DNA of 64,000 nucleotides from Flavobacteriaceae bacterium (GCA_047621945.1 JBLHMK010000001.1:22237-86236), one strand, 5' to 3'. Counted from the stretch's first letter, positions 9,702-54,611 are shown. Notes: generated from the sequence alone by a model not told the origin. Made by a program: numbers and translations.

Positions 9702-9704
9702 TTC

Positions 9705-10781
9705 ATGAAAAAGTTAAATAAGTGGCTGATGCCAGTTTTCGTGACGCTCGTTACTTTGCTATTATTTAAAACAGCTTTATTGAGTCTTACAGAAGAAAAC
9801 AGACCCGTGCCTAGAGCTAAAATCGCTGGAATGAACCTGTTCGGCAATTGCGAAGAATCTGAAAGTCATAATATTACAGAGAGTCTTACCGCCCCTCAAC
9901 GTATTCATCCTGTTCGCATAAGCGGAGAAGTTTTGTTCGCAAATGAACTAGTACCTCTAAATGATCAAGAAGTGCGAGAAAGATTTGATAGAGAACTTCT
10001 TGTAAATACCTTTTGGCATTCAAATACCATGTTGAATTATAAATTGTCTAGTAAGTATTTTGAAGATATTGAACGTATTTTAGAAGAGAATGGAGTACCA
10101 GGCGACTTTAAGTATTTAGCCGTAGCTGAGAGTGGATTGAGAAACGTAGTTTCACCTGCAGGAGCTGCTGGTTATTGGCAGTTTTTACGTTCAACAGGTT
10201 TAGAGTATGGGCTTGAAATTAATAATGAAGTAGATGAACGCTACGATTATGTGAAAGCAACATCCGCGGCTTGTGAGTATCTAAAGGATGCCAAGGCAAG
10301 ATTTGGTACTTGGACGCTAGCTGCAGCTAGTTATAATGTGGGAATGGCTAAACTAAGTAAAAGATTGCAAGAACAACAAGTAGACAATTATTACGATTTA
10401 TACCTTAACTCAGAAACATCTCGCTACTTATTTCGAATTTTATCGTATAAAATGGTTTTTGAGAACCCAGATAAATTTGGATTCGATTTCGTAAAAAAAG
10501 ACTTTTACGATCCGTATCAATACAAGAATGTGGTAGTAGAAAATTCTATTGCTGATTTAGCCCAGTTCGCAATTGATAATGGCACTACATACAAAATGTT
10601 GAAAGTAGTAAACCCTTGGTTGACAGCTAAAATATTGACAATAAGTACTGGGAATAGTTACAGCATTAAAATCCCAACGAGCTATGTTGACGAAGCTTTT
10701 CATGGTGCGGAATACGAAGAAAAAGGGGTCGTAGAATTTGATGAAAGTAATGATCTTAACGAAATAGAAATTAGTGAATAA
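9705..10781 (+). CDS. Lytic transglycosylase domain protein (SLT family)
   Basis: 358-aa ORF with an N-terminal TM/signal segment. SLT motifs are AVAESGLRN (catalytic Glu), AAGYWQFL and ASYNVG. Confidence 0.8.
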   Translation: MKKLNKWLMPVFVTLVTLLLFKTALLSLTEENRPVPRAKIAGMNLFGNCEESESHNITESLTAPQRIHPVRISGEVLFANELVPLNDQEVRERFDRELLVNTFWHSNTMLNYKLSSKYFEDIERILEENGVPGDFKYLAVAESGLRNVVSPAGAAGYWQFLRSTGLEYGLEINNEVDERYDYVKATSAACEYLKDAKARFGTWTLAAASYNVGMAKLSKRLQEQQVDNYYDLYLNSETSRYLFRILSYKMVFENPDKFGFDFVKKDFYDPYQYKNVVVENSIADLAQFAIDNGTTYKMLKVVNPWLTAKILTISTGNSYSIKIPTSYVDEAFHGAEYEEKGVVEFDESNDLNEIEISE

Positions 10782-36987: not shown

Positions 36988-37740
36988 CTTCCTATCGTTA
37001 GCTACTCCCCATATTCAAGCGATGGTTCTTGGTGATATTATTGTAATGATAATGGACCCCCATCTAATGATTTGGATGACATTTTGATATTCTCTGTGCG
37101 ACCAAATGGAAATGTTTTTGATGGTACTGCGAATATTATCTTACATGGTGTTCCAGGCTTTGCTGAAGACCCAGGAATAGAAGCAAGTTGGACAATGAGA
37201 AAATATTGGAATTTCACGGATACTTCTGGTTCTATTGTTAATCCAGTGGATTTACAGGTGCTGCGGGCGCCGGGCCAGGGAGTTCTCTATTGCCAGTAGA
37301 ATTGATGTTCTTCAAAGGAAAGCATATTGATGCAGGAAACCTATGGTATAATAAACTATGCTTATGTGGATGAAGAGTTTGCCAATGCTGTTAATTACTA
37401 TAGATTGAAGAATGAAGATTTTGATGGAACTTACGAGATCTCGGCTATTGATAATAACAAACAAGAGTTGGATGAAAGTAAGATCTTGTTATTGTACCCT
37501 AATCCTTCAACTCAAGGCTTAATCAATTTGGATGCCTTTATTGCAAATGAAGGAGAGTTTAGAATTGAGGTATATGATTTAGTAGGTAAGAAAATTTCTA
37601 GCCATAAAGTGTACCTTGATAAGGGTAAACAAACTATTCAAGTTAATTTTGATGGAATGGGAAGTGGTTCCTTCATTGCTGAAAAGCTTGAAACATCTAC
37701 CAATGAACGAGTAAAGAAAAAGTTTGTTCGAACTAATTAG
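36988..37740 (+). pseudogene. 3' remnant of a T9SS-secreted protein gene (in-frame TGA, two frameshifts, internal deletion)
   Basis: Frame 1 is open from 36988 with an in-frame TGA at 37033-37035 (SSDGSW*YYCNDNGPP). The conserved PVELMFFKGKHIDAGN motif is readable only in frame 3 (37242-37373). Frame 1 resumes with YAYVDEEFANAVNYYRLKNEDFDGTYE and an intact T9SS C-terminal domain (ILLLYPNPSTQGLINL...). Track ORFs 37072..37299 and 37327..37740 are fragments of this remnant. Confidence 0.65.
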
Positions 37741-40198: not shown

Positions 40199-40232
40199 AA
40201 AAAAAAGACCGCGTAAACGCGGTCTTTTTTTT
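40199..40232 (-). terminator. Strong intrinsic terminator ending the 1275-aa gene
   Basis: GC-rich stem gaccgcg / cgcggtc with loop taaa, flanked by A8 and T8. It begins 16 nt after the stop at 40248. Confidence 0.8.
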
Positions 40233-40247
40233 ATCTTGAATCACTGT

Positions 40248-43200
40248 TTATTTAATGATCATTTTTATGCTTTGCTGACTGCTTTCATTTGAAATTTGCA
40301 AATGATAAATTCCAGCATTTAAATTAGGACTTACTACATTTAGCTGCTGTTGTCCAAGCGATAACTCATAATTCCATGATTGAACTACTCGTCCTAATAA
40401 GTCTATCATATTGATTTGGTATTCACCTGAAGTGCGAACATTCATTCCAATGGAAAATTCACCATTGTTTGGATTAGGATACAAACTTAATTCTCCAAGC
40501 GCTGTTAACTCACGAACTCTAGTGCTAGTTGAAGTATCTGTACAATACACAGTGAATAAAACACCATCTCCAATCACATCGCAATTACCTACAATATTAG
40601 GGAAGTTAGCAGGTGGAGGTTGTGGTAAATCAATTACAAACTCAATACTTTCCGTAGTACCTGCTGAAATACTGGCATTTACATCTGGTATATTGTATAG
40701 GATATCATTGCTGATTTGACTACAAGAATCTGTTAACACCGTTACATTCATTCCTGATAAAGCGATATCTAAAGTACCCGTTCCGGTATTTGGTAAAATC
40801 ATTTCCCATGTTCCATTTGGATTGTCATTGAAACCTAACATGGACACTAACTCTAAACAAGCAGGATCTCCTAGCTGAGAAGTTGCTAATCCCCATAGTC
40901 CTGAGTTTACTGGTGTTCCTGGAGGTACAATACCTGCAGCTAAAGTTGCAATAACATCTAAAGTGTCACCCGTAGGTAGAACCATTAATAATGGATTGAT
41001 TTCCCAGTCAGTGCCACTCAAACCAATGCAAATATTAATTTGTGGAGTACATGCTACTGAGAAAGGATCCCATGCAACGCTAGTGTCTATAGTCACTGAT
41101 TGAGCTGTAAATGGAGTAGCATAATAGTTGCCATTTGCCAAATTCAGGTCGCTACAAGCTAGATTAATAATAGTATCATTATCGCCTGGGAAAACCATAT
41201 TGGCAGCTATAGCAGCTTGCAGCTCAGCTATAGTTGTAACAGGTCCATCAGCTTCAGAAGTAACCGCCCATGCCACTGAATTACCACTCAACAAGTTAAA
41301 GTCACTCGCTGTTAAGGTAACTTGATCTCCATTTAGATTCACTACAACTCCGTTAGAGCTAGAAAAACCAGCTTCGCATTCAAGAACAATTATAGGAGGG
41401 GTGTATGAAGTAATTTCTGTTGTCTCAATGATATAAATCATTACTCCATCTACTTGTATTTCAATAGTAGTTCCTAACTCATTAATGTACACAGTTGCAA
41501 CACCATTCTCTACGATGTAGAAAGAATCTAAAGGATTAACGCTGACCGTGTTTGATCCATCAAGCACTGTAGTATCTCCGTTTGAATCAACTATTACAGT
41601 TCCAATAGCGAATGTTATCGTATCTGGAGTTAAAATTACCACATTTGTATCCGTGCAATATGCTGTGAAAGCCGTGGCCGTTCCAAAAGTTTCACAATCT
41701 ACGGCTACACTAGGGAAGTTAGATGGTAAAGGAGGAATAGTAATAGAAAACACTCCTGTATTTCCTGCATTTACAGTCCCACTTATTCCTGTGATAGAAG
41801 TAATTTGATCGCTAGTTAAATTGTTACATGAATCAGCCAAAACAAGCATATCGAAATCGGCAATGTTGAAATTTAAAGCGCCACTTCCTGTGTTTGGTAG
41901 AATAAATGTCCATGTTCCGTTGGGGTCTTCTGTATATTGAAGGATGTCGATCAAATCAATACAAACAGGATCTCCGAACTGAGAAGTAGCTACACTCCAA
42001 AGTGTAGGGTCAATAGGGGTACCTGGAGGAATCAAACCACCTGCTAACTCACCAATTACGTCTATGGTATCGCCATTTGGAAGAATTAACTCTAAAGGAC
42101 TTACTTGATAGTTAGATCCAGATAAGGATATACATACTTCCATTGAAGGTCGACAACTTGTCGCTTCATTCATATCATAATAAATGGAATCAACAACTAA
42201 AGCCTCAGCTGTAAATGGCGTCATTAAGTAGTCTCCATTTTCTAATGAAACATCGCTGCAAGCTAAGTTTAATGTGGAATCGCCATCACCTGGGAATACC
42301 CATCCGCTATCTATAGCTACTTGTAATTCTGCCATATTCGTAATTGGTCCTTGAGCGTCTGTAGAAATAGCCCATGCTATGATATTTCCTGAATTAAGAA
42401 TGAAATCCTCAGCAGTGAAATCTATTTCATCTCCTGAGAATGAGATTAAAGAACCGTTACTCATAGATGTACCTGGGATACATAAACTAAATGGAGAAGA
42501 GAGTTCTTCACAAGCTAAGTTATTAGCAAAACTAACCGTAAAAGTACCACCAGCTGAAATAGCATTTGCGCTTAAGGTATCATTAGTTTCATTGAGTATT
42601 TGGATGTTATCTGTATACCATTGGACATCATAGCTGTTTGGATTAGCCGTATAAACTTCTCCATTCATGGCTTCAATTAAAGGTGTAGTTACACTTTCAA
42701 CTGTAATTGTTGCAGTATCAGAAAAACCTGGGCAAATATTCCCTGTTTCTAGTACTTCTACTACAAAGTTCCCAATACTATTTACGGTCAATGTTTGACT
42801 ATTCGCATTAAGGATTACTCCATTATCATCGTACCATTGGTAATAATCAAACCCAGCACCTGCGTCTAGGATTGTTGAATCACCAGTACAAATAGCAAAG
42901 CCATTACTAGCTAACAAGTTGTTCGCAGCTGAAGTAGCTTGAATTCTCACAGTGTCCCAATTCTCTAAAACAGTATTTACCTGTTGTTGAATAGTGATTG
43001 TACCTGAAAAATTATTAGCGTTATATCCTAAAACAAGTCCAGGAGATAAAGCTGTAAAGCTTGTTGTTGCAGTTCCTAGATTATCATCTTGACTACCAAA
43101 TGGCGGGCCATTATCCTCGTCCCAAGCATTAATAGAAACTGAAAAAGAGGTAATCGGCACATTCAAACCATTAAAGGTTTTATTTGTTCCTGAACTAGCT

Positions 43201-44075
43201 GTTGATGTGGTAACTGAACCACTTCCTCCATTAATCAATAGATACAACTCAGGATTTTGAAGAGTTGTTAACTCTTCAATGTCTCCAGTCCATCCACCAG
43301 TAGCAGATATAGTTGCCTGCGAAACGTAATATTCATAAATTGTAGTGGTTAACTTAACGGGATAGTCTCCTGGTGCAGAATAGGTTTTTGAAGCAGGTAA
43401 GCCAGTTGCAGTGGTACCATCATGAAACAACCAAGCTTGTTGAACTGGATAAAGAATCGGATCCGGAGAAGCTAAGTCAGTATCAAAAGAAACCGTTGCT
43501 GAATTGCACGCTACTGGTGGGGTCATTTCAATAGGACCAGTTCCTGTACCTGGCAGCACTTCGATATATAAGTCAGTTGTCTGGGCATCACAAGCCGATA
43601 ATCCTGAAAGAGAACCACATCCTTGAATATTTACTACAATAGTATATATTCCAGGTGAAGCAAAAGTTTCCCCACATAAACTCACCACACCATAACGATA
43701 GTTTTGAGGGTTGTAAGTATTGTTATTTGCAAAAGCTGCAGCATCAGTAGTCCATGATAATCCAATAGGTAAACCACTAACTCCTAAAATTTGGATTGAG
43801 GTTACGGTTGCTGTCCCTGATATTGGGGAGGTAATAGCTTGTTTTTTTGGAAGTAGATACTGTACAAAAATAGTAGTATCTGAGCCCTGTACAACCACAC
43901 TCGTATCTACATCAGTCGGGTTGGCATCGTTCGTGAATCCCAATGAGAAATCATCAATTGTCCCCCATACTGCGGGGTTAGGTGTCCCTTGAAGACAAGC
44001 TTGACTAAAACCAAGTTGTGGCAATTGAGTCAAAATAAAAAGGCTTAAAAGTAGTTTTATATTTGTCATATTCAA
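40248..44075 (-). CDS. Giant T9SS-secreted surface protein (PKD-like module, two large Cys-containing repeats, type-A C-terminal sorting domain)
   Basis: 1275-aa ORF. Signal peptide (LFILTQLPQLGFSQ) and a PKD-like segment (WLFHDGTTATGLPASKTYSAPGDYPVKLTT). Two ~265-aa repeats. C-terminal LSLYPNPNNGEFSIGMNV...GIYHLQISNESSQQSIKMIIK matches the T9SS sorting domain. Confidence 0.8.
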   Translation of the reverse strand: MNMTNIKLLLSLFILTQLPQLGFSQACLQGTPNPAVWGTIDDFSLGFTNDANPTDVDTSVVVQGSDTTIFVQYLLPKKQAITSPISGTATVTSIQILGVSGLPIGLSWTTDAAAFANNNTYNPQNYRYGVVSLCGETFASPGIYTIVVNIQGCGSLSGLSACDAQTTDLYIEVLPGTGTGPIEMTPPVACNSATVSFDTDLASPDPILYPVQQAWLFHDGTTATGLPASKTYSAPGDYPVKLTTTIYEYYVSQATISATGGWTGDIEELTTLQNPELYLLINGGSGSVTTSTASSGTNKTFNGLNVPITSFSVSINAWDEDNGPPFGSQDDNLGTATTSFTALSPGLVLGYNANNFSGTITIQQQVNTVLENWDTVRIQATSAANNLLASNGFAICTGDSTILDAGAGFDYYQWYDDNGVILNANSQTLTVNSIGNFVVEVLETGNICPGFSDTATITVESVTTPLIEAMNGEVYTANPNSYDVQWYTDNIQILNETNDTLSANAISAGGTFTVSFANNLACEELSSPFSLCIPGTSMSNGSLISFSGDEIDFTAEDFILNSGNIIAWAISTDAQGPITNMAELQVAIDSGWVFPGDGDSTLNLACSDVSLENGDYLMTPFTAEALVVDSIYYDMNEATSCRPSMEVCISLSGSNYQVSPLELILPNGDTIDVIGELAGGLIPPGTPIDPTLWSVATSQFGDPVCIDLIDILQYTEDPNGTWTFILPNTGSGALNFNIADFDMLVLADSCNNLTSDQITSITGISGTVNAGNTGVFSITIPPLPSNFPSVAVDCETFGTATAFTAYCTDTNVVILTPDTITFAIGTVIVDSNGDTTVLDGSNTVSVNPLDSFYIVENGVATVYINELGTTIEIQVDGVMIYIIETTEITSYTPPIIVLECEAGFSSSNGVVVNLNGDQVTLTASDFNLLSGNSVAWAVTSEADGPVTTIAELQAAIAANMVFPGDNDTIINLACSDLNLANGNYYATPFTAQSVTIDTSVAWDPFSVACTPQINICIGLSGTDWEINPLLMVLPTGDTLDVIATLAAGIVPPGTPVNSGLWGLATSQLGDPACLELVSMLGFNDNPNGTWEMILPNTGTGTLDIALSGMNVTVLTDSCSQISNDILYNIPDVNASISAGTTESIEFVIDLPQPPPANFPNIVGNCDVIGDGVLFTVYCTDTSTSTRVRELTALGELSLYPNPNNGEFSIGMNVRTSGEYQINMIDLLGRVVQSWNYELSLGQQQLNVVSPNLNAGIYHLQISNESSQQSIKMIIK
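40530..41333 (-). repeat. Intragenic protein-level repeat, copy 2 (aa 915-1182)
   Basis: NGDQVTLTASDFNLLSGNSVAWAVTSEADGPVTTIAELQ...NLACSD...GDPACLEL...NPNGTWEMILPNTGTGTL...DSC...VYCTDTS. It is separated from copy 1 by a 103-aa spacer. Confidence 0.75.
41643..42437 (-). repeat. Intragenic protein-level repeat, copy 1 (aa 547-811 of the 1275-aa protein)
   Basis: SGDEIDFTAEDFILNSGNIIAWAISTDAQGPITNMAELQ...NLACSD...GDPVCIDL...DPNGTWTFILPNTGSGAL...DSC...AYCTDTN. It aligns colinearly with copy 2, with roughly half the positions identical by eye and conserved Cys positions. Confidence 0.75.
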
Positions 44076-44178
44076 TCTTGTTAATTAATGAGGCCGAAGG
44101 TACGGTATTACTTTATCAAGTCTAAATCAAGGTTTTAAATGGAGTACAACTAATGAGAAATAGTACTTCTTTTAGCGT

Positions 44179-46224
44179 TTAATCATTATCTAAATAGCTT
44201 CTATAGGCCTGAATAAAAGCGGCACCTAGGTTTTGATGAGGGGGCACGTATTCTGCAAATTTATCGTGGGCATAGCTATTTTTTGTAAATTGTTTGGATA
44301 GATTCAACCAGAATTCATCCCATTTAATAGGCTGACCAGCATCTACATTTTGCGCTAGTTTGTAGATAAGAGGATTGTTTACTGTGAAAGTGCCAATCTG
44401 TTTGGTAGAAATAATATGAGCACTTGGTGACTTGGTTAATATATCGGTAACTTGATGGTATCCGCCACAAGACCCTAATAACACAACCTTGGTTTCTTCT
44501 CTTAGGAAGTGAATAGTACGTGATACATAAAAGCTATGTCCTCGGTGGACTAAAACTTCTATATCAGCTTGCATAGCATCTACAAATTGGTTCATTAATT
44601 TTTGCCCCTCAAAATCATGTTGGGGTTTATTCGCTAATATCTGAATAGGTGTAGAATTGACACTGGTAATGACTATGAATTCACCGAAATCCTTGATTTT
44701 CCAATCTTTGTTTCTCCATAAACTTAAGAATGTTTGGAAAGAAGTCATTCCATCCTCATCATCATAAAAACAGTGAATTTGAGTATGTAAATTATCACGT
44801 CCAAGCAACTCGGCTCTACTAATCTCATTAATGGACGGCAGGGTGATAAGGCTTGTTATAGTCTGATAAGCTTCTTGATTGTGCACGGCTTTATCTTGGA
44901 AAAGCTTCATTAGTAAGGTGTAAATCAACCGCAAATTTGGATCTCCTGCTTCTTTATAGTTTTGCAATAAATTTTCTTCTAAACGAATTAGGGATAGGCT
45001 GTCATTTAAACTCCCTAAGGCATCTGCTAAACTTACCGCTTCCCTTAAGGCATCTTTCTCACAATCTAAATAGGCAAATTTACTAATGAGCTCTTCTCTT
45101 TGTTCAATGGACATTTGATCGAGAAAATATTCTAGCTTCCCGTATGAAATACACATTTTTAGAAAGGTTCGAAATTGATTGAAATTCACTTCTTCAAGTA
45201 GACCATAGTTGGTCTTTCCTTCCTGTTTGATTTTAGCAAGTAATAAATTAAAAACGCCATTAAAAGATGAGGTAAATATTTCTTCTTCGCTATATACAAT
45301 GATATGATAAATTTGTTGACTGGAATAAGGGGCAAGCGATTCAAAACGATGTTTATCGTCATGATTTTCGTACAAAGAATTAATGAGTCTTATCTTTTTA
45401 ATAGCGCTTGTCTTAAGGGCGTTGTCAATCGAATTCCTTGCTAGTATAGAATCGCTTGAGGCTAATTCCACTAACTTTGTGAAGAATTGTTCACTCCCTA
45501 ATTTTGCAATGTTATTTGCTTCCTCAATAGTTAATTCCTCATTCACAATAGCTTGTAATAAGCACAGTGCATTGCTTGAGCTTCCCGTGTGCTGATAAAT
45601 AGCTAGGACTAGACTATCTGTTTTATTTGAAGAGCTTTTCAAATGGGAATAAAGCACGTGTAAACCTGAAAAGTATTGTTTAGCGGCAATGGGGTCTTTT
45701 TCAATAAGTTTGCTTAAGATAGCTGGGGCATAGGATGCTAAAGAGAATGTTTTATAATTATTCAATACAACGTGCGGCTTGAGAATAGCCTCATTTTCGA
45801 CAAATTCTAGCGCTTCTGGCGTCGCGTAAATAAAAGGAAGAATCGTATAGCTTAAGATGGGATTAGATCTAAAAAATACATTAGTGCGTTTATCTTCTAG
45901 TTGCTGTAAATACTTCTCAAGAATATAGAAGCTCTTTATCTCTCTAGCATCTAGCGAGGAATGTTCATTGAAGTTGACTAGGTGAAAGTATATGGACAGG
46001 CGTATCTTTTCTTTCGTTTGACTTTCCAAATTTAACTGAGCCAAAAGTAGTTGTAATTTATCTACCTGCTCAAAAAGAACTGAGGCAGACTCTTCTCCGT
46101 TAAATTGCCAATTTTCAATACCATCGAGTTGGTCAATTCTATTCTGCTGAAAGTCTATATAGCTTTGAGTGAATGCGGAATGAAAACCGAGAAGGAGAAA
46201 AATATGGACTAAAAAACACTTCAT
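44179..46224 (-). CDS. Secreted/periplasmic protein of unknown function (C-terminal His/Cys motif region)
   Basis: 681-aa ORF. Signal peptide MKCFLVHIFLLLGFHSAFTQ. No family recognised. C-terminal motifs VLVHRGHSFY and VVLLGSCGGYHQV. Confidence 0.6.
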   Translation of the reverse strand: MKCFLVHIFLLLGFHSAFTQSYIDFQQNRIDQLDGIENWQFNGEESASVLFEQVDKLQLLLAQLNLESQTKEKIRLSIYFHLVNFNEHSSLDAREIKSFYILEKYLQQLEDKRTNVFFRSNPILSYTILPFIYATPEALEFVENEAILKPHVVLNNYKTFSLASYAPAILSKLIEKDPIAAKQYFSGLHVLYSHLKSSSNKTDSLVLAIYQHTGSSSNALCLLQAIVNEELTIEEANNIAKLGSEQFFTKLVELASSDSILARNSIDNALKTSAIKKIRLINSLYENHDDKHRFESLAPYSSQQIYHIIVYSEEEIFTSSFNGVFNLLLAKIKQEGKTNYGLLEEVNFNQFRTFLKMCISYGKLEYFLDQMSIEQREELISKFAYLDCEKDALREAVSLADALGSLNDSLSLIRLEENLLQNYKEAGDPNLRLIYTLLMKLFQDKAVHNQEAYQTITSLITLPSINEISRAELLGRDNLHTQIHCFYDDEDGMTSFQTFLSLWRNKDWKIKDFGEFIVITSVNSTPIQILANKPQHDFEGQKLMNQFVDAMQADIEVLVHRGHSFYVSRTIHFLREETKVVLLGSCGGYHQVTDILTKSPSAHIISTKQIGTFTVNNPLIYKLAQNVDAGQPIKWDEFWLNLSKQFTKNSYAHDKFAEYVPPHQNLGAAFIQAYRSYLDND

Positions 46225-46247
46225 ATTAGTGTCGTAAAGATAGTTAT

Positions 46248-47285
46248 TTATGCCTTAGCTAATGTAAAGCCAAAAGTAGTCCCTACGCCGGTGTTACTGC
46301 GCACGTGGATGGTTTGCTCATGGGCATCAATAATATGTTTACAAATTGAGAGTCCAAGCCCGTTTCCACCCTCATATCTAGATCGATGACTATCTACCCG
46401 ATAAAATCGTTCAAACAATCTTGGTAAATGTTGCTGTTCTATTCCAGGTCCATCATCAGTAACTTCGATCAAGATATGATTACCCATTGTATAAATGCCT
46501 ACAAGAACTACCCCTTCTTCGTTACCATATTTAATTGCATTAATAACTAGATTGTTTAATATAGTCTCCACTTGCGCTCTATCTGCATTAACCATTTTAC
46601 TGTTCGGGTTTTCTGCTTTTTGTTTGAGTTTTATGTCTTTTACTTCCGCAGACATTTCGTGTGACTCAAATACATCTTCAACTAACTTTACTATGTCGAA
46701 TTTACTAATTGAAAGGTCTAAATTCCCGGATTCATTCTCTGAAATAATCAATAGATTATCTACAATACTTGAAAGTCGATCTAAATTTTTTGAAGCTTTC
46801 TTTAGATAACTAGTATTCACCTCGGGATTGTCTAGTGCGCCATTCAAGAGGGTTTCGATGTATCCTTGGGTGTTAAAAATAGGTGTTTTGAGTTCATGAC
46901 TAACGTCTCCTAAAAACTCTCTCCTATACCTTGCCATTTTCTTGAGTTCTTCAATTTCGCTGGCTTTGGAATGACTAAACTCTTTTACTCTAGCTTCTAC
47001 TTCATTTAAGGGGTCATCAGCTTGTTGTGTGATTTGACTACTACTTCCGGACTTTAACTGGTGTACATTTTTATAAATCAACTTGATTCTTCGGTAAATG
47101 AATCCATCTACTAAAAAGTAGATTATCGCATAGCTAACAAGAAAGGAAAGTATTACAAAGAGCAATAGAAAATACCAATTTAATTCCCAATTGAAAATGA
47201 ATGTCACGCTAAGCAAAACACCCATGCCTGCTGCAATTAGAATTGAAGCTATTAAAGCTACTTGGAGTAAACTAGCGTTTTTCAT
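46248..47285 (-). CDS. Sensor histidine kinase (intramembrane-sensing type)
   Basis: 345-aa ORF. Two N-terminal TM helices with a minimal external loop. H-box DVSHELKTPIF, N-box LVINAIKYG, G1 VTDDGPGI and G2 GGNGLGLSICK. Start overlaps the RR stop (ATGA). Confidence 0.9.
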   Translation of the reverse strand: MKNASLLQVALIASILIAAGMGVLLSVTFIFNWELNWYFLLLFVILSFLVSYAIIYFLVDGFIYRRIKLIYKNVHQLKSGSSSQITQQADDPLNEVEARVKEFSHSKASEIEELKKMARYRREFLGDVSHELKTPIFNTQGYIETLLNGALDNPEVNTSYLKKASKNLDRLSSIVDNLLIISENESGNLDLSISKFDIVKLVEDVFESHEMSAEVKDIKLKQKAENPNSKMVNADRAQVETILNNLVINAIKYGNEEGVVLVGIYTMGNHILIEVTDDGPGIEQQHLPRLFERFYRVDSHRSRYEGGNGLGLSICKHIIDAHEQTIHVRSNTGVGTTFGFTLAKA

Positions 47286-47962
47286 GCATGAAATTTATAT
47301 CCTACACCTTTGACCGTTACAAAATGATCGTTTCCTATTTTTTCTCGTAATTTTCGAATGTGAACATCAATAGTTCGATCTACAACTATTGTTTCTGTTC
47401 CCCAAACTTTAGTAAGAATTTCTTCTCGTGTAAAAACTCGCCCTGGCTTAGACATAAGTAGGCAAAGGAGATTGAATTCTTTTTTGGGAAGAGATAGTTC
47501 TTTATCAGCTATAAAAACTAAATGTTGATTTAAATCTATTTTAACTCCGCTAGCTTCTATTGAATTTTGTTCTTCCTCAAGGTGATTTCTGCGCAAGAGG
47601 CTTTTGATTTTACTTATAAGTAATCTAGGCTTGATTGGTTTTGAAATGTAATCATCCGCTCCAGCATCAAATCCTGCAATCTGGCTATAGTCTTCGTGCC
47701 TAGCTGTTAAAAACGTAATTAGCGTATTTTTAAACTCGGGCAATTTCCTAAGTTCATTACAAACTTCCATTCCATCCATATTGGGCATCATTACATCAAG
47801 TACAATTAGATGGGGTTTAAAAGTCTTGGCTAATTCAATAGCTATGACTCCATCCTCAGCACAAGCGGTTTGAAAACCTTCTTGTTGTAAATTGTATCGA
47901 ATGAACTCTAAGGTATCTTCTTCATCATCTACTAATAAGATTTTTATCTCTGAATTTTCCAT
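47282..47962 (-). CDS. OmpR/PhoB-family response regulator
   Basis: 226-aa ORF. Receiver motifs ILLVDDEED, DVMMPNMDG and SKP. Winged-helix C-terminus ...RTIDVHIRKLREKIG...VKGVGYKFHA. This is the only gene in the window ending in TGA. Confidence 0.9.
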   Translation of the reverse strand: MENSEIKILLVDDEEDTLEFIRYNLQQEGFQTACAEDGVIAIELAKTFKPHLIVLDVMMPNMDGMEVCNELRKLPEFKNTLITFLTARHEDYSQIAGFDAGADDYISKPIKPRLLISKIKSLLRRNHLEEEQNSIEASGVKIDLNQHLVFIADKELSLPKKEFNLLCLLMSKPGRVFTREEILTKVWGTETIVVDRTIDVHIRKLREKIGNDHFVTVKGVGYKFHA

Positions 47963-47979
47963 AATTATCTATTTGACTG

Positions 47980-47987
47980 CAAATATA
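47980..47987 (-). promoter_or_regulatory. Bacteroidota -7 promoter box (TAtaTTTG) for the two-component operon
   Basis: The plus strand reads caaatata, which is TATATTTG on the minus strand, 17 nt upstream of the ATG at 47962. Confidence 0.45.
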
Positions 47988-48105
47988 CAGGGTTTAGTTT
48001 ATTGAATTCGCTTCTTAATTATTTGTTTACAAACCTGTTTAATTCTTAAAGATTAGATAACATAGCGATAAGATGCTGCTTATTTCGATAAATCATATTT
48101 GCAGC

Positions 48106-49461
48106 ATGAAAAAAAATATAAAAACTATGAAAAATTTATTGTTACCGTTAATGGCCTTAGGTCTTATGAATTTCTTTCTTCAATCTTGCAAAGAAGATGA
48201 TGAATGTGAAGGTGTTGCTTGCTCGGCTAATCAAACTTGTGAAGATGGAACTTGTGTAGATGTTTCTGAGAACGAGTTGGTTCAAGGCTTTATAAGTCAG
48301 GATGTAACATGGACAGCAGATAAGGTTTATGAGTTAAGCGGAAGAGTGGTAGTACGAAGCGGAGCTACACTAAGTATAGAAGCAGGTACTCTTATTAAGG
48401 GCCAAGAAGGAACAGGGTCTAGTGCCAGTGTTTTAATCGTGGAAAGAGGAGCAATGATAGATGCACAAGGAACTGCTACTAGTCCAATTATTTTTACTTC
48501 TCAATCGGATAATATTAAACCAGGTGAAATTGCAGGTAGTAATCTAGATGAAACAGTAAATGAACTATGGGGGGGATTAATTATTTTAGGAAATGCGCCT
48601 GTTTCAACTGAAGACGGAGATGTATTGGGTCAGGTAGAAGGAATTCCTTCGAATGAAACTTATGGTCAGTATGGAGGAAGTGATGCAAATGATAACTCAG
48701 GAACATTGACTTATGTATCGATTCGTCATGGTGGTATTACTATTGGAGATGGTAACGAAATTAATGGTCTAACCCTAGGTGGGGTTGGCGCAGGAACTAC
48801 TATTGACCACATAGAGATTGTTGCAAACTTAGATGATGGAGTAGAATTTTTTGGAGGTACAGTTAATGCTTCAAACATTATAGTTATCTATCAAGGAGAT
48901 GATGGCATCGATATTGATCAAAATTATTCTGGAACTATTGACAATGTTATAGTTATTAGTGGTGACGGTATTGGTACAGACGAAGCCTTAGAAATAGATG
49001 GCCCGGAGAATTCAACTTACACAACAGGATTATTCACGATTAGAAATGGTTCTTTTATCAATGAAGGGACTTCTGGCTCGGCTGGTGATTTAAAATCTAA
49101 AGCGCAGGGAACTATAGAGAACTGTACATTTGAAGGTTTTACTTCTGGATTAAAAATAAGAGCAAGCTTTTCTGATACGACTTTATGCACGGAGAAAGAA
49201 GATTCATATGCACATTTATCTGCAGCATCACCAAGCTTGATTGTTAGGAATAATCAGTTTGGAACAAATTCAACACTTGCAGATTACGTAAATGTTTATT
49301 CAGGTTCTTGTACCGATTGTTCTTGTCCAAGTGGCGTAGAAGGTAATAGTGATAACATTATTGCTGCTGACGGGAATACTGCTGCTGCTTCAGTAAGCGG
49401 GGGAGCAGTGCGATCAGAGTTTAGTAATTGGACCTGGGCAGCAGAAAGAGGGAAATTATAA
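48106..49461 (+). CDS. Hypothetical lipoprotein (Cys-rich N-terminal knot plus beta-helix-like repeats), partner of the downstream TonB-dependent receptor
   Basis: Signal peptide with lipobox LQSC, then CEGVACSANQTCEDGTCVD and repetitive G-rich strands (GTLIKGQEGTGSSASVLIVERGAMIDAQG...). The start is moved to Met12 of the track ORF. Met19 (48127) is an equally good alternative. Confidence 0.6.
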   Translation: MKKNIKTMKNLLLPLMALGLMNFFLQSCKEDDECEGVACSANQTCEDGTCVDVSENELVQGFISQDVTWTADKVYELSGRVVVRSGATLSIEAGTLIKGQEGTGSSASVLIVERGAMIDAQGTATSPIIFTSQSDNIKPGEIAGSNLDETVNELWGGLIILGNAPVSTEDGDVLGQVEGIPSNETYGQYGGSDANDNSGTLTYVSIRHGGITIGDGNEINGLTLGGVGAGTTIDHIEIVANLDDGVEFFGGTVNASNIIVIYQGDDGIDIDQNYSGTIDNVIVISGDGIGTDEALEIDGPENSTYTTGLFTIRNGSFINEGTSGSAGDLKSKAQGTIENCTFEGFTSGLKIRASFSDTTLCTEKEDSYAHLSAASPSLIVRNNQFGTNSTLADYVNVYSGSCTDCSCPSGVEGNSDNIIAADGNTAAASVSGGAVRSEFSNWTWAAERGKL

Positions 49462-49535
49462 AAAAAATATAACATTCATTTATGAAAGGCGCTAGTTTTA
49501 CTAGTGCCTTTTGTGATGTTAGGAAATCAGGGATT

Positions 49536-52415
49536 ATGAAGAATTTAGTTTTAGTTGTGTTAAGTGTTTTTGCTTTAAATATGGGTATGGCACAACAGGG
49601 GAAGTTAAGAGGTACAATTATTGACAAGGAAAATGCAGAAACGCTAATTGGAGTGAGTATAGTTTTGGAAGGAACAACCACAGGAACGATTACGGATCTT
49701 GATGGTAACTACAATTTAAACTTAGACCCAGGCACTTACACCGTATTATTTTCTTATATCTCTTATGCTACCCAGCGAGTAACTGATGTGCTTATAAAGC
49801 CAGGAGAAACAAAGCTAATTGATATTCAACTAGGAACAGATGCAGAACAAATTGGTGAGGTGGTAGTTAAAGCTGAGCGAATTACAAACAGTGAAACTGC
49901 CCTATTGACTATCCAAAAGAAATCTACGGCTGTTTTGGATGGAGTTTCTTCTCAAACTTTTAGTAAGACAGGGGATAATGATGCTGCTGCCGCTATAAAG
50001 CGAGTAACGGGAGTATCCGTTGAGGGAGGGAAGTATGTGTACGTGAGAGGATTAGGAGATAGGTATACTAAAACTCAACTTAATGGAGTAGATATACCTG
50101 GTTTAGATCCGGATAGAAATTCGGTTCAAATGGATATCTTCCCCGCGAATTTATTAGATAATATTTTAGTTTACAAAACATTTAATCCAGATTTACCCGG
50201 AGATTTTACTGGAGGATTGGTTGATGTAACTACTAAGAGTTTTCCTTCTACCTCAACCTTTGGGTTTTCGGCCAGTTTGGGTTACACTGCAGGAATGAAT
50301 TTGAATAGTAACGCGCTTCGATATAAAGGTGGCGCAGGGACATTTTTCGGATTTGGAAATAAGTTTCGGGAGCTTCCTTTTCCGGAAAACACTAACATCC
50401 CTAATCGATTCGAATTCAATCCAACATTAACTGAGTTAACGGGTGGTTTTAATCGTCAATTAGCTCCAACTCAATTTACCAGCCCGTTGAATGGAAGCTT
50501 ATCTATTTCAAGAGGAAATCAAGTAAACAAGGAGAAAGTAACTTTAGGGTTTAACTCTGCTTTTAATTATCGATACCAATTTAGAAACTATGATAATTTT
50601 GAGTTTGGAAGATCGATTAAAGATCAATCTTCAGAAACTGAACTTTTACAAACACAATATGCTAGTGGGCAACGTTCTGAGCAGGAAGTTCAGTGGAGTG
50701 GAATGTTAGGTGGAGCATTGAAAACTAACAAGAGTAAATTTATTTTGAATTTACTTCATAGTCAAAATGCAGTAAGTCGATCAGCGCTATATGACCTTAC
50801 CTATCCTTCTGGACAAAACACGGCTTTACCTAAAAAGCAATTCGTACTTGATTATTCTCAGCGATCAGTGTCCAATATGCTATTGGGAGGTAAACATAGT
50901 ATCCGTCCTGATAAATGGGAACTGGAGTGGAAGCTTTCACCCACTTTTTCAAAGATTACAGAACCTGATATTAGAAGCACAACCTATCTTATAGAAAATG
51001 ATGAATTTATTATTGATAATGGTGACGGAGCGGTTCCTGAAAGATTTTATCGTTCATTAAACGAGATTAATATGGTGGCTCGTATGGATGTGACTCACGA
51101 TTTCAAAGTATGGAAGAATTTAGATTCTAAGTTGAAATTTGGATTTGCAAGCACTTATAAAAATCGTGATTATCAAATCTTGAGATTTATATTTAATTCT
51201 ACGCTAGATGCTGACCTTACTGGTAATGCAGATGAGTTGTTCTCGGATGAATTGTTGTGGACGCCATCGAATAGAACTGGAACCTATGTAAGAGCTGAAG
51301 AAAGCTTAAATGACAATCCAAACATTTATACTGCAACTCAAAACGTAGCAGCGATTTATGTGATGAACGAATTACCGATTACTCCGGTATTCAAAGCTTC
51401 CTATGGATTGCGTTATGAGAGAACGGATAACTGGATAACTGGATATGGAAGATTGTCAGGTGAACAAATCAATCGGGATATTGAAGGGGAGAAAGTATTG
51501 ACAGAAAACGATTTCTTACCCGCTTTAAATTTAATTTATAATGTAACTAAAGATATGAACTTAAGAATGTCTTATAGTAGAACATTAGCAAGACCTTCTT
51601 TCAAGGAAAAATCATTCGTAAGTATTCTGGATCCTTTATCTGGAATCAGATTTATTGGTAACATTGATTTGGAGAAAACGAACATTGAGAATGTAGACCT
51701 TCGTTGGGAGAATTTCTTTAAACGTGGTCAAATGATATCGGTGAGTTCATTCTATAAGCACTTTAAAAATCCTATTGAGATTGCCGGATTTGAACTTGAA
51801 CAAGATGATATCACTCCACGTAATGCTGGTACAGCTCATTTAATAGGAGCCGAGTTTGAGTTCAGGAAAGATTTTGGGTGGATTAGCTCTAAAATGGCTG
51901 ACTTATCTATAGGTGCAAATGTAACTTATGTAAAATCCTTGATTGATATGAGAAAAATTACGGTAGGGGCTGGAGCTGATGGAGTTTTTGGAACCGATGA
52001 CGATCGTACTGAATTCGAATCTAGAAGTGATAACTTAAGAGATGGAGAAACATTAGGTAATTTCCGTAGTATGTTTGGTCAGTCGCCGTTTATAGTAAAT
52101 GCCAATATCACTTATTCAAATGATACGGTTGGATTTGAAGCGAACTTATCGTATAACATACAAGGGAAAAGATTGGCTGTTGTTGGAGTTGGCGTGCGAC
52201 CAGATGTATACGACCAATCTTTTCATAGTTTGAATCTTAAGCTTTCCCAGCGGTTTGGAAAAGAAGACAGATGGAAAGCGAGCATCACCGCTCAAAACCT
52301 AATAGGTGATTTAAGAGAGAAGTTTTATGAGTCTTATGAAGCAGAAGCTCAAGTGTTTGAGCGCTTCGATCCAGGAAGAAGCTTTTCAGTGGGAATTTCC
52401 TACCTCATTAAATAA
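49536..52415 (+). CDS. TonB-dependent receptor with N-terminal carboxypeptidase-regulatory-like domain
   Basis: Signal peptide MKNLVLVVLSVFALNMGMAQQ (start moved to Met19). CarbopepD_reg-like GKLRGTIIDKENAETLIGVSIVLEGTTTGTITDLDGNYNL. Plug region VTGVSVEGGKYVYVRGLGDRYTKTQLNG, followed by a long beta-barrel. Confidence 0.85.
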   Translation: MKNLVLVVLSVFALNMGMAQQGKLRGTIIDKENAETLIGVSIVLEGTTTGTITDLDGNYNLNLDPGTYTVLFSYISYATQRVTDVLIKPGETKLIDIQLGTDAEQIGEVVVKAERITNSETALLTIQKKSTAVLDGVSSQTFSKTGDNDAAAAIKRVTGVSVEGGKYVYVRGLGDRYTKTQLNGVDIPGLDPDRNSVQMDIFPANLLDNILVYKTFNPDLPGDFTGGLVDVTTKSFPSTSTFGFSASLGYTAGMNLNSNALRYKGGAGTFFGFGNKFRELPFPENTNIPNRFEFNPTLTELTGGFNRQLAPTQFTSPLNGSLSISRGNQVNKEKVTLGFNSAFNYRYQFRNYDNFEFGRSIKDQSSETELLQTQYASGQRSEQEVQWSGMLGGALKTNKSKFILNLLHSQNAVSRSALYDLTYPSGQNTALPKKQFVLDYSQRSVSNMLLGGKHSIRPDKWELEWKLSPTFSKITEPDIRSTTYLIENDEFIIDNGDGAVPERFYRSLNEINMVARMDVTHDFKVWKNLDSKLKFGFASTYKNRDYQILRFIFNSTLDADLTGNADELFSDELLWTPSNRTGTYVRAEESLNDNPNIYTATQNVAAIYVMNELPITPVFKASYGLRYERTDNWITGYGRLSGEQINRDIEGEKVLTENDFLPALNLIYNVTKDMNLRMSYSRTLARPSFKEKSFVSILDPLSGIRFIGNIDLEKTNIENVDLRWENFFKRGQMISVSSFYKHFKNPIEIAGFELEQDDITPRNAGTAHLIGAEFEFRKDFGWISSKMADLSIGANVTYVKSLIDMRKITVGAGADGVFGTDDDRTEFESRSDNLRDGETLGNFRSMFGQSPFIVNANITYSNDTVGFEANLSYNIQGKRLAVVGVGVRPDVYDQSFHSLNLKLSQRFGKEDRWKASITAQNLIGDLREKFYESYEAEAQVFERFDPGRSFSVGISYLIK

Positions 52416-52457: not shown

Positions 52458-52982
52458 TTATGCTGCACTATCAGCAGGAGGCTCGGGGCTTGGTTTAGCC
52501 AAGCTACCTAATTCTTTATCGATGTAGTACAAACTTTGTGCACCTGTACCGATAAGCTTAATTTTATCTAAAACTTTCTGAAACAAAGTTTCTTCTTCCC
52601 GTTGTTCTTGAACGAAAAAACGCAACATTTCAATCGTTACGTGGTCATCTTCTGCTTTAGCCAATTCTACTAATTTAAAAATGGCTTGCGTAACCTCTTT
52701 CTCTGTACTGTAAGCCGTTTCACAAATCTCTTTAACCTCATTGAATTTGTGATTAGGTTGTTTCACTGGGGGCACTAATGCGTGTCCGCCTACCTCATTG
52801 ATGTATTGAAACAATTTGATGAAATGCAAATTTTCCTCATGCGCGTGACCATAGAAAAAACTTGCAGCTCCATCCATACCCCTTGTTTCGCACCAGCTAG
52901 CCATGGCTAGATATTGCAAGGAAGCTTCTAGTTCATATAGAAGGTGATCATTTAAAGCTTTTTCTATTTTTTTTGAAATCAT
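52458..52982 (-). CDS. ftn: Ferritin (non-haem, Ftn type)
   Basis: 174-aa ORF. Ferroxidase-centre pattern ELEASLQYLAMASW...HAHEENLHFIKLF...FVQEQREEE. Confidence 0.9.
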   Translation of the reverse strand: MISKKIEKALNDHLLYELEASLQYLAMASWCETRGMDGAASFFYGHAHEENLHFIKLFQYINEVGGHALVPPVKQPNHKFNEVKEICETAYSTEKEVTQAIFKLVELAKAEDDHVTIEMLRFFVQEQREEETLFQKVLDKIKLIGTGAQSLYYIDKELGSLAKPSPEPPADSAA

Positions 52983-53131
52983 AATAGTCTATTTTTTTAA
53001 TCTTAACGCAAGAATAAACACAAAAGTTGGTATTTTGAAATTTTAATTTTGAAGATATAGATAGCTCAGTATAGATCTTATAAAAAAAGGCCTCCAAAAT
53101 TGAAGCCTTTTTTATAAAGTTCAATGTATTC

Positions 53132-53580
53132 TTAACTTAAAGCTGCAATTACCAATACTTGACCCGGATAGATGTGATCTGGATCTTCTAACATTCGCTT
53201 AGTGGCTTCAAAAATTAGCTTATACTTGCTTGAATCGCCATATACTTTCTTAGAAAATTTTGATAAGTAATCTCCTGATACTAAAGTATAAAACTGAGTT
53301 TCTGGAGCTTCAACTACTTCTTCAACTTCAACTCTATCATCTACAGAGTTAATTCCTCGGATGTTTCCTGCTGCCATAACGATACGGTTATTTTCTTGCA
53401 AAGTATCTACTTTACCTTCAAGAATAACAATACTTCCATTTAAAGTAGCTTCTACACTATCTGAACTTTAATATGATTCAACATTGCGTTATTTTTGTCT
53501 TTGTCTGAAGCTAGATCTGCTTCTTCTATTCTGCCGAACAATTTCGCTCCAGCATCCTTTTCGAAAGAAAATAATCCTAA
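53132..53580 (-). pseudogene. Kbp/YgaU-like BON-LysM protein gene, frameshifted and lacking a start codon
   Basis: Track ORF 53132..53401 encodes the BON C-terminal part plus LysM (FYTLVSGDYLSKFSKKVYGDSSKYKLIFEA...IYPGQVLVI). Upstream in another frame, 53580-53455 reads (L)GLFSFEKDAGAKLFGRIEEADLASDKDKNNAMLNHIKVQ, matching the E. coli Kbp N-terminus MGLFNFVKDAGEKL. The frames switch near 53455-53468. The codon at the Met position is TTA, with an in-frame TAA three codons upstream. Confidence 0.7.
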
Positions 53581-53625
53581 GTGTTTTTAAGTTTCAATTT
53601 TAATAAATATGCTGAAAATGACTTC

Positions 53626-54576
53626 CTATTTCAAGCCAATTTCTCTTAATCGTTGATCCAAGTACTCTCCAGAAGTAATAGGTTTGTAGTTTAATGGATT
53701 GTCCGTTGTGATACAACTTTCAAGACAAGTCAAATTCATGTTACTTCTTGGGTGTAAGAAGAATGGAATAGAATACCTTGAGGTATGCCACATTTCTCTT
53801 GGTGGGTTAACTACTCGATGCGTGGTTGAACGTAAAACATTATTAGTTAAACGTTGTAACATATCACCTACATTGATTACTAGATGTCCTTCTGGAGCAT
53901 TTACAGAAACCCAGTTTCCGTCTTTATCTTTCACCTGAAGCCCTTCAGCTGAAGCACCTGCAAGCAAAGTAATCAAATTAATATCTTCATGCTGCTCTGC
54001 ACGAATAGAAGACTTGGGTTCACCTTGAATAGGTGGGTAATGGATAGCTCTTAATATGCTATTTCCATTATGTATTTTGGCTTCGAAATAATACTCGTCT
54101 AGATTTAAATATAAGGCGATAGCTCTTAACAAAAGGGCACCAGACTTTTCAAATGAAGTATATAACTTACGACCAATTTCTTCGAAATCAGGCAACAAAT
54201 CTACTACGATATTCGAGGGATATTCTTTTGAAATTTTATCGCCATCAGTTACTTCTTGGCCCATTTGCCAAAATTCTTTTAAATCAGGAGCATCAAAACC
54301 TTTCGCGTGCTCTCTACCGAAGCTAGTGTAGCCCCTTTGTCCAGCGTTTGCTATATCTTCATACTTCAACTTAGTTGTAGTGTCAAATTCAAAGAAACGT
54401 TTCACTTGCGTATAGAATGCATTAATATATTCATCTGGAACACCGTGATTCTTTACGGTGACAAATCCAACATCTTTCCATGCCTTTCCTAACTCTGCAA
54501 TAAATTCTTGACGTTGAGCGTCATTACCCGTCGCGAATTTTGATAAATCAACTGCAGGAATACTTGTTACAGCCAT
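53626..54576 (-). CDS. 2OG-Fe(II) oxygenase (isopenicillin-N-synthase-like family)
   Basis: 316-aa ORF. Iron-binding HxD (AEQHEDINLITLL) and distal His plus 2OG-binding Arg region (STTHRVVNP...RYSIPFF). Confidence 0.8.
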   Translation of the reverse strand: MAVTSIPAVDLSKFATGNDAQRQEFIAELGKAWKDVGFVTVKNHGVPDEYINAFYTQVKRFFEFDTTTKLKYEDIANAGQRGYTSFGREHAKGFDAPDLKEFWQMGQEVTDGDKISKEYPSNIVVDLLPDFEEIGRKLYTSFEKSGALLLRAIALYLNLDEYYFEAKIHNGNSILRAIHYPPIQGEPKSSIRAEQHEDINLITLLAGASAEGLQVKDKDGNWVSVNAPEGHLVINVGDMLQRLTNNVLRSTTHRVVNPPREMWHTSRYSIPFFLHPRSNMNLTCLESCITTDNPLNYKPITSGEYLDQRLREIGLK

Positions 54577-54611
54577 AAATAGTAAGTTTAATTGAATACA
54601 AAATTAAGCAA

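Follow-up and report, generated by a model that had tools for sequence, protein, structure and literature searches.

Locus organization

Here, we analyze a block of four co-directional minus-strand genes in a 64,000-nucleotide (nt) stretch of DNA from a Flavobacteriaceae bacterium (GCA_047621945.1 JBLHMK010000001.1:22237-86236), which in its entirety is referred to as the window. The genes encode a response regulator (RR), a histidine kinase (HK), a 681-amino-acid (aa) protein (P681), and a 1275-aa protein (P1275). An initial annotation of the window had placed all four in a single operon or regulon, in which the two-component system would control a giant surface protein, P1275, and its dedicated accessory protein, P681. 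The four open reading frames (ORFs) are as follows.

47282 to 47962, minus strand: RR, OmpR/PhoB-family response regulator of 226 aa with Response_reg and Trans_reg_C domains
46248 to 47285, minus strand: HK, histidine kinase of 345 aa with two transmembrane (TM) helices, a 6-aa outer loop, a linker of ~55 aa, and HisKA and HATPase_c domains
44179 to 46224, minus strand: P681, putatively exported protein of an uncharacterized family, with a signal peptide, an alpha-solenoid (~aa 25-460), and an alpha/beta domain (~aa 470-680)
40248 to 44075, minus strand: P1275, type IX secretion system (T9SS) type-A cargo with a putative signal peptide, an N-terminal region, a PKD domain, a Cys-containing Ig-like region, two 283-aa modules, and a C-terminal sorting domain

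Positions and strand of these genes agree with the initial annotation, as do the ATGA overlap of RR and HK (junction gcATGAaa), the distances of 23 nt between HK and P681 and of 103 nt between P681 and P1275, a TATATTTG box upstream of the RR gene (47987 to 47980, minus strand), and a hairpin with a T8 tract after P1275 (40232 to 40199, minus strand). Both internal gaps fold no better than shuffled sequences (z = 0.49 and -0.60). A site scan found no minus-strand terminator-like sites between the four genes, and an Rfam search of both gaps returned no match, with only sub-threshold matches to leaders and small RNAs on the terminator itself.

The proposal of a single operon held only in part. 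Comparison of the window with the loci of relatives, labeled L001 to L096, indicates that RR, HK, and P681 act as one unit, with HK-P681 gaps of 13 to 28 nt kept in relatives, and that P1275 lies outside it. Co-conservation of the four-gene order fails for P1275, which in relatives is absent, separated from the other genes, or located elsewhere. Judged from these comparisons, the order of all four genes is confined to a single shallow lineage.

Conserved linkage of P681 to the two-component system

All relatives with a P681 identity of at least 44% kept the order RR-HK-P681. Six loci (L081 to L085 and L094) possess the three genes with the short HK-P681 gaps and P681 homologs 44 to 58% identical to that of the window. 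In L081 to L083 (P681 identity, 58%) and L084 (56%), Beta_helix_4 and TonB-receptor genes diverge from RR, an SRPBCC gene follows P681 in the same direction, and SSB and RmuC genes oppose it. These are the window's own flanking genes, without P1275. L085 and L094 (both 44%) retain the three-gene unit together with the same divergent pair.

Orthologs of RR (53 to 65% identity) and/or HK (43 to 51%) also adjoin P681-family genes in other arrangements. L015 shows the order RR, HK, paralog, P681, where the paralog is a 1000- to 1200-aa member of the P681 family carrying the same HRGHS and GSCGG motifs. HK, paralog, and P681 occur without RR in L010, L011, and L014. In L004 to L006, RR is followed after ~600 nt by paralog and P681, with no HK, and L063, L064, L068, L070, and L075 have HK and RR divergent from P681. 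In total, linkage was found at 12 of 80 species-level loci, on separate branches of the P681 tree and in at least five arrangements across Chitinophagales, which is far above chance for one two-component system among thousands of genes. That the linkage survives rearrangement argues for a functional tie of RR and HK to P681.

Alternatively, P681 could be a lineage-wide housekeeping periplasmic protein, whose nearness to the two-component system merely reflects inherited gene order. In most clades its neighbors are indeed housekeeping genes (glyA, mutS, a trmH-like gene, PPK2), with mutS and the trmH-like gene upstream of P681 in some of them, and in L095 and L096 P681 has no two-component system nearby. 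We consider this explanation improbable, given that the linkage has outlasted at least five rearranged configurations, including those in which only RR or only HK is left, and that intergenic distances are very short, with coding regions overlapping or abutting.

The paralog forms a tandem pair with P681 in a larger set of loci (L001 to L006, L010 to L012, L014, L015, L017, and L032), in which a 990- to 1200-aa protein with the HRGHS and GSCGG motifs is encoded directly upstream of a P681 homolog of ~700 aa, frequently with overlapping or abutting reading frames.

Divergent control region

The RR gene and the neighboring plus-strand operon share an intergenic region, which was aligned from five genomes. 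The features recognized here are listed below.

47980 to 47987, minus strand: TATATTTG, Bacteroidota-type -7 promoter box, identical in four of the five aligned relatives
48011 to 48029, minus strand: TAAACAAATAATTAAGAAG, 19-bp block (T[TA]AAC-N6-TTAAG) found by alignment, candidate RR binding site near the RR promoter; position weight matrix (PWM) score of 22.7 out of a possible 24.1
48042 to 48060, minus strand: TTATCTAATCTTTAAGAAT, second copy of the 19-bp block, 31 bp from the first and near the divergent lipoprotein/TonB-receptor promoter; PWM score of 21.5
48073 to 52415, plus strand: divergent pair of a lipoprotein, which probably starts at 48127 and in relatives belongs to the Beta_helix_4 family, and a TonB-dependent receptor

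In the fifth relative, TATATTTA replaces TATATTTG. On its own, the motif TAnnTTTG shows no enrichment across the window (100 matches versus 87 +/- 9 expected), and the box at 47980 carries weight because it is conserved in relatives. A scan of the window for the sigma-70 consensus, which is uninformative for this phylum, found 24 matches versus 35 expected.

With a PWM built from ten aligned sites, scores above 20 were reached only at 48011-48029 and 48042-48060 across the 64 kb, the next best site scoring 13.5. A degenerate version of the motif was at chance level (21 matches versus 24 expected), and the PWM alone separates the two real sites. Neither the PWM nor a motif scan of the window revealed such operator-like blocks upstream of P681 or P1275. 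TTATC-N6-TTATC had also been considered as an operator and was rejected in favor of the T[TA]AAC-N6-TTAAG blocks, as it was neither enriched nor conserved.

Regulators of the OmpR/PhoB type bind direct repeats at 11-bp spacing. The two blocks fit tandem half-sites of such a regulator and thus represent a putative operator. From their conservation and their 11-bp-type repeats, we infer that RR might regulate its own gene as well as the divergent lipoprotein/TonB-receptor operon. The divergent arrangement is kept in L015, L081 to L085, L088, L089, and L094, and this lipoprotein/TonB-receptor pair, syntenic with RR and HK, is likely regulated by them.

The ATG at 48073, which defines a 462-aa lipoprotein ORF, is probably a wrong start; the relatives' proteins (405 to 445 aa) have starts that line up with the conserved ATGAAAAA at 48127. 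Inside the supposed N-terminus, at ~48095-48103, lies the conserved -7-like sequence CATATTTGC. The alignment also shows a conserved CAT(A/C)TTTGC, on the strand opposite to RR, that precedes the ATGAAAAA start. The mature lipoprotein would start at the lipobox Cys (FLQSC), followed by KEDDE, which we take to resemble the Bacteroidota surface-lipoprotein export signal.

Response regulator and sensor-less kinase

RR belongs to the OmpR/PhoB family, with 97.3 bits against PF00072, 85.7 bits against PF00486, and the motifs VDDE and LIVLDVMMP in its translation. Its best NCBIfam match is the Bacteroidota PhoB equivalog NF053854, which at 214.7 bits falls under the cutoff of 270 and does not qualify RR as PhoB. 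HK scored 149.8 bits against the Bacteroidota PhoR equivalog NF053855 (cutoff, 500), with a match limited to the catalytic core (aa 111 to 344) and no PAS domain. PhoB/PhoR are nevertheless the best-scoring NCBIfam models for both proteins. Apart from the failed equivalog cutoffs and the lack of a PAS domain in HK, the locus differs from phoB/phoR in having no adjacent pst or phoU gene. The PhoR protein of E. coli is also without a periplasmic sensor domain.

A PPK2 gene (Pfam PPK2, E = 6e-62) follows P681 after 0 to 125 nt in more than 20 loci of the L041-L079 clade (Flavipsychrobacter/Taibaiella-like), usually with glyA upstream. Because RR and HK most resemble PhoB and PhoR and PPK2 follows P681 in this one clade, a phosphate-related role of P681 may serve as a lead.

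The input region of HK comprises two hydrophobic segments (aa 3-33 and 33-64) linked by the loop NWELNW, and a domain search detected no HAMP, PAS, or other input domain even at E <= 5. In intramembrane-sensing kinases, as reportedly defined by Mascher in 2006, the input region is limited to two TM helices, which are separated by less than 25 aa. HK shows this topology, with a total of 345 aa (below ~400) and no further recognized input domain, and in topology it agrees with the initial annotation, which had described it as a kinase of this type. In BceS, published work describes the linker as a HAMP-like helix bundle, and by analogy the ~55-aa linker of HK may hide a similar, cryptic HAMP-like element. 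Since HK has no extracytoplasmic and no recognizable cytoplasmic input domain, its signal must, if the predicted topology is right, arrive via the membrane or be supplied by a partner.

An exact TAnnTTTG match (TACTTTTG) is located at 46271-46278 (minus strand), 47 nt upstream of the P681 start and within the 3' end of the kinase gene, where the codons specify GTTFGF. This match could represent an internal promoter or result simply from the coding sequence.

P681 family and predicted structure

P681 had no match in Pfam or NCBIfam, and a Pfam search of 25 family members at E <= 5 yielded nothing consistent. Forty full-length relatives retrieved by a word-indexed search were all without a Pfam domain, and the few named by source were metagenome-assembled genomes of Chitinophagales or Chitinophagaceae. 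A profile search of 1.84 billion cluster representatives returned 1350 at E <= 1e-3 and 675 at E <= 1e-30, which sets the family size at 1350 or more clusters at 50% identity, and a one-genome-per-species scan detected at least 562 P681 loci. Among the best 80 of these, nearly all are labeled Chitinophagales, Chitinophagaceae, or unclassified Bacteroidota; one is from the cultured Chitinophaga japonensis, whose strain DSM 13484 has the locus in the divergent arrangement (NZ_VLLG01000002.1, ~1,961,300-1,966,500). A profile of the C-terminal domain matched 1016 of 5.8 billion proteins; the 120 listed are all without Pfam domains and mostly from short contigs, and the few named are from Bacteroidia or Chitinophagales. 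Long fusion-like family members contained no informative extra domains. On the basis of these searches, P681 represents a genuinely uncharacterized family, included in no described one, which appears essentially confined to Chitinophagales. It is thus a large order-wide family missed by current domain libraries, with a confident predicted structure and clear invariant residues.

Apart from the short signal-peptide core, P681 has no hydrophobic stretch of 19 residues, and alignment of the N-termini reveals a cleavage motif of the AQ/TQ type. As this core is too short for a TM helix, P681 is presumably exported, and as it is without a T9SS sorting domain, it probably stays in the periplasm.

Alignment of homologs revealed three invariant motifs, Y487-x-D489-x-D491-G492, H560-R-G-H563-S564, and L583-G-S-C586-G587, along with invariant N616, P618, W635, W639, Y659, P662, and N665. 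K608, conserved in at least 90% of the sequences, was invariant until the L015 paralog, with R at this position, was added to the alignment. An AlphaFold2 (AF2) model with a mean predicted local distance difference test (pLDDT) score of 87 and a predicted template modeling score (pTM) of 0.81 contains a signal-peptide helix, an alpha-solenoid that extends to residue ~460, and, at the C-terminus, an alpha/beta domain. In this model the conserved motifs lie at the C-terminal ends of consecutive parallel strands, where such folds would usually have their active or ligand-binding site.

P681 has diverged more rapidly than the genes around it. Between L081 and the window, P681 is 58% identical, compared with 87% for RR, 72% for HK, 77% for the TonB receptor, and 75 to 79% for SRPBCC, SSB, and RmuC; the C-terminal motifs are invariant despite this fast divergence.

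Searches of the PDB provided little guidance on function. The full-length profile found no chain at E <= 10, and the C-terminal-domain profile found six non-significant, unrelated matches (LSD1 SWIRM and YbgC among them; E, 0.22 to 1.3). Foldseek comparison of the model with the PDB returned nothing significant, the best matches being MglA and other small GTPases (E = 0.019 to 0.4) and generic solenoids. Several motifs considered for comparison with the pocket, namely HAD DxDG, CE4 TFDDG/HxxH, LmbE PDDE/HxDH, histidine phosphatase RHG, and PTP Cx5R, as well as the receiver-domain acidic pocket and the Ras G motifs, gained no support from the searches and were discarded.

One conceivable enzymatic identity is a new periplasmic His/Cys peptidase, clan CD-like, with a helical substrate-binding arm and a catalytic domain as in CHAT/separase types. 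As in these, helical repeats precede a C-terminal domain in P681, in which one strand is followed by an invariant His (in G-H-S) and the next strand by an invariant Cys (in G-S-C-G-G). However, P681 is predicted to be exported and shows neither sequence nor fold likeness to caspase, gingipain, or legumain: the PDB profile searches mentioned above gave no significant match, no Pfam peptidase was matched, and none of the three was among the top 50 Foldseek matches. In our own reading of the model, the order of strands and helices is nearer to a Ras-like sandwich, without its G motifs, than to the caspase fold. Moreover, His and Cys are 23 residues apart, a shorter distance than is known for clan CD enzymes. 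A peptidase of this kind therefore seems very doubtful.

P681 might instead act as a periplasmic co-sensor, binding a ligand or metal by its Asp/His/Cys pocket and modulating the sensor-less HK. The absence of an input domain from HK, the family-wide invariance of the pocket residues, and the retention of HK with paralog and P681 where no RR is nearby (L010, L011, and L014) are consistent with this possibility, and its logic is analogous to that of the accessory proteins of intramembrane-sensing kinases. It is weakened by the lack of a TM segment in P681 beyond the short signal-peptide-like core, by the 6-aa HK loop, and by the many family members, the majority, that have no kinase nearby. In addition, the known partners of intramembrane-sensing kinases are membrane proteins. 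Published work on the Bce system identifies BceAB as such a membrane partner. Overall, we regard a co-sensor as a minority prospect.

A comparison with BceRS-BceAB, LiaFSR, and GraSR-VraFG of Firmicutes illustrates both sides. Shared traits are a kinase of less than 400 aa, a two-TM input with a minimal loop, an OmpR-type regulator as partner, and a co-encoded non-kinase protein which could supply or modulate the signal. The window locus differs in phylum and in the nature of that protein, which would be exported and soluble, with 681 aa, rather than an ABC transporter or membrane protein; its operon includes no ABC transporter.

P1275 and its relation to the upstream genes

The architecture that the initial annotation had assigned to P1275, a PKD module, two large repeats, and a T9SS sorting domain, was recovered. 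The features of the gene and its flanks are as follows.

43341 to 43520, minus strand: PKD domain, aa 186-245 (PKD_4 match at aa 188-245, 37.5 bits; cutoff, 27)
41640 to 42482, minus strand: module copy 1, aa ~532-812, delimited by BLASTP between the copies
40533 to 41378, minus strand: module copy 2, aa ~900-1181, absent from the ~900-aa homologs
40254 to 40484, minus strand: T9SS C-terminal sorting domain (Por_Secre_tail), aa 1198-1274 (PF18962, 47.1 bits, cutoff 27; TIGR04183, 38.1 bits, cutoff 23)
40199 to 40232, minus strand: AAAAAAAAGACCGCG-TTTA-CGCGGTCTTTTTTTT, intrinsic terminator with a 9-bp GC-rich stem and A8/T8 flanks
44144 to 44168, minus strand: AAGTACTATTTCTCATTAGTTGTAC, conserved block just past the P681 stop, also present upstream of P1275 homologs, including those of L086 and of L088, the latter with no P681
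44095 to 44102, minus strand: TACCTTCG, candidate -7-like box 25 nt upstream of ATG 44069, one mismatch from TAnnTTTG

The ORF has the 1275 aa reported, and ATG 44069 is the likelier start, giving 1273 aa as in the homologs P0041 and P0042. The N-terminus, MNMTNIKLLLSLFILTQLPQLGFSQA-C, resembles a signal peptide, and the sorting domain at the extreme C-terminus marks P1275 as T9SS type-A cargo. In a direct pairwise BLASTP, the two modules were 46% identical over 283 aa (E = 2e-94), a repeat missed by a self-BLAST of the whole protein. Among the 26 homologs of P1275, lengths of ~900 aa and ~1272 aa correspond to one and two modules, respectively, pointing to duplication of a single 283-aa module in the clade of P1275. 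The AF2 model of the module (pLDDT, 82) consists mainly of beta strands, and its Foldseek matches were limited to generic proteins with tandem Ig/FN3 domains, among them the biofilm scaffold RbmA, with TM scores below 0.22. These models suggest a usual adhesin-like or surface-layer-like T9SS cargo of beta-sandwich modules, with no enzyme fold indicated. P1275 shares with SprB/RemA-like type-A adhesins PKD and Ig-like modules, Por_Secre_tail, a lineage-specific module number, and, putatively, the signal peptide; it differs in its 283-aa module, for which no Pfam model exists and structural comparison gave nothing beyond generic matches, and a role in motility is not indicated.

A 137-aa ORF at 37327-37740 (plus strand) contains little beyond a T9SS sorting domain (Por_Secre_tail, E = 3e-8) and could represent either a remnant or a cargo of very small size. 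The presence of this second sorting-domain ORF suggests that the host possesses a T9SS. At the syntenic position past RmuC, L086 encodes a T9SS protein of more than 2500 aa.

P1275 is absent from loci in which RR-HK-P681 is intact (L081 to L084, where SRPBCC follows P681). Conversely, in L088 and L089, RR and HK are followed after 371 nt by a one-module P1275 homolog (907 aa, 64% identity). This spacer contains a decayed P681 at 9645-9803 (53 codons corresponding to aa 569-621, 36% identity, E = 1e-5), which looks like recent gene decay. In L087 (72% identity to P1275), the P681 and P1275 homologs are ~8 kb apart, with RDD, SpoIIM, MoxR, DUF58, and Peptidase_M90 genes between them, and in L094 this block starts right after P681. 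L086 (80%) has P1275 followed by SRPBCC and the opposing SSB and RmuC genes, and its contig ends just upstream of P1275. More distant homologs (40 to 47% identity) reside in unrelated contexts, with ferredoxin/LuxC genes upstream or near TonB receptors, and a P1275 homolog next to P681 was seen at none of the 80 species-level loci. Since relatives retain either gene in the absence of its counterpart, P681 cannot be regarded as an accessory dedicated to P1275.

The terminator hairpin, AAGACCGCG-TTTA-CGCGGTCTT with A8 and T8 on either side, folds at -24.8 kcal/mol (z = -6.2; none of 200 shuffles was as good) and was missed by a simple consensus terminator scan. Its A8/T8 flanks make it potentially bidirectional. 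An equivalent hairpin follows the P1275 homolog in L086, and none is found after P681 in the P681-SRPBCC interval of L084; by this comparison, the strong terminator belongs to P1275. The conserved block at 44144-44168 is probably part of the P1275 5' region. The 103-nt gap holds the candidate box (44102 to 44095), and the position aligned with TACCTTCG is occupied by TATTTTCG in L086 and by TAATTTTA in L088, where P681 is gone. P1275 thus probably has its own promoter; its L087 homolog needs one because the gene upstream is divergent. In the window genome, read-through from RR-HK-P681 into P1275 may also occur, as no terminator lies between the units.

The four-gene model of the initial annotation, in which the two-component system controls P1275 and P681 serves as its accessory or maturation factor, draws on the co-directionality of the genes, on the lack of a terminator before 40232-40199, and on the loci that keep P1275 in place: P681 lies directly upstream of it in the window and probably in L086, and in L088 it follows the same RR and HK. 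Against this model, P1275 and P681 are lost independently and are separated by 8 kb in L087, with the same block after P681 in L094; the distant P1275 homologs are never beside P681 or RR/HK, P1275 neighbors P681 at 0 of the 80 P681 loci, and the operator-like motif is absent upstream of P1275. We consider the four-gene model quite improbable. Nor does P1275, an ordinary T9SS cargo that comes and goes independently, amount to an undescribed giant cell-surface system.

A two-unit model of the locus

Taken together, the locus comprises a two-component operon with an unknown exported partner beside an ordinary T9SS cargo gene, and the proposed four-gene system dissolves. We favor a model, to which we assign a probability of roughly 0.55, in which RR-HK-P681 is an autoregulated operon sharing its control region with a TonB-dependent uptake pair, and P1275 is a separate adhesin-like gene. 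That the two units are adjacent only through lineage-specific synteny seems slightly better than an even bet.

In this model, the first unit would be a three-gene operon driven from the conserved TATATTTG promoter, which sits in the 164-nt divergent control region shared with the lipoprotein/TonB-receptor operon. RR would autoregulate RR-HK-P681 and control the divergent transporter genes, and the sensor-less HK would receive its signal through the membrane or from a partner. P681, exported via a cleavable signal peptide and combining a solenoid scaffold with an alpha/beta domain bearing an Asp/His/Cys/Lys site, would most likely be a periplasmic co-expressed effector, that is, an enzyme or a metal- or ligand-binding protein acting on the envelope. 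Feedback of P681 to HK as a co-sensor is the main alternative and appears less likely than a function as effector. The second unit would be P1275, with its own terminator, probably its own promoter, and possibly read-through from the first unit.

Several points weigh against this model. Gene structures, domain content, patterns of conservation and synteny, the terminator, and the predicted folds are direct results of the analysis, and the operon boundaries, the operator function, the location and role of P681, and the P1275 promoter are deduced from them. The window, probably L086, and L088 (with its P681 remnant) keep P1275 downstream of the same two-component system, and some regulatory tie of P1275 to RR and HK is possible. 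Within 10 kb of P681, an orthologous RR or HK is missing at 68 of the 80 species-level loci; hence the linkage is no strict requirement, and inherited synteny could account for part of it. The fold search with P681 gave no significant match (best E = 0.019, small GTPases) and supports no catalytic assignment. With an outer loop of only 6 aa in HK, direct sensing of a soluble periplasmic partner is hard to picture.

The two-unit model removes a tempting yet unsupported "giant surface system" annotation, leaving an ordinary adhesin-like T9SS protein that is mobile in synteny. The recurrent tie of P681 to one orthologous two-component system with a sensor-less kinase makes the question of kinase input testable. 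It is tempting to speculate, although tentatively and with the odds against it, that the P681 family is the periplasmic sensing or enzymatic arm of this kinase and forms a new exported class of solenoid plus alpha/beta proteins. If true, this would be a signaling architecture undescribed in Bacteroidota, with a type of partner unlike the membrane partners in Firmicutes.

Neighboring genes

Beyond the TonB receptor, genes for a ferritin-like protein, a 2OG-Fe(II) oxygenase, and a 520-aa unknown protein (52458-56174, minus strand) are syntenic with the TonB-receptor/lipoprotein/RR/HK block in L081 to L084 and L088. This synteny hints that the transporter pair could be metal-related.

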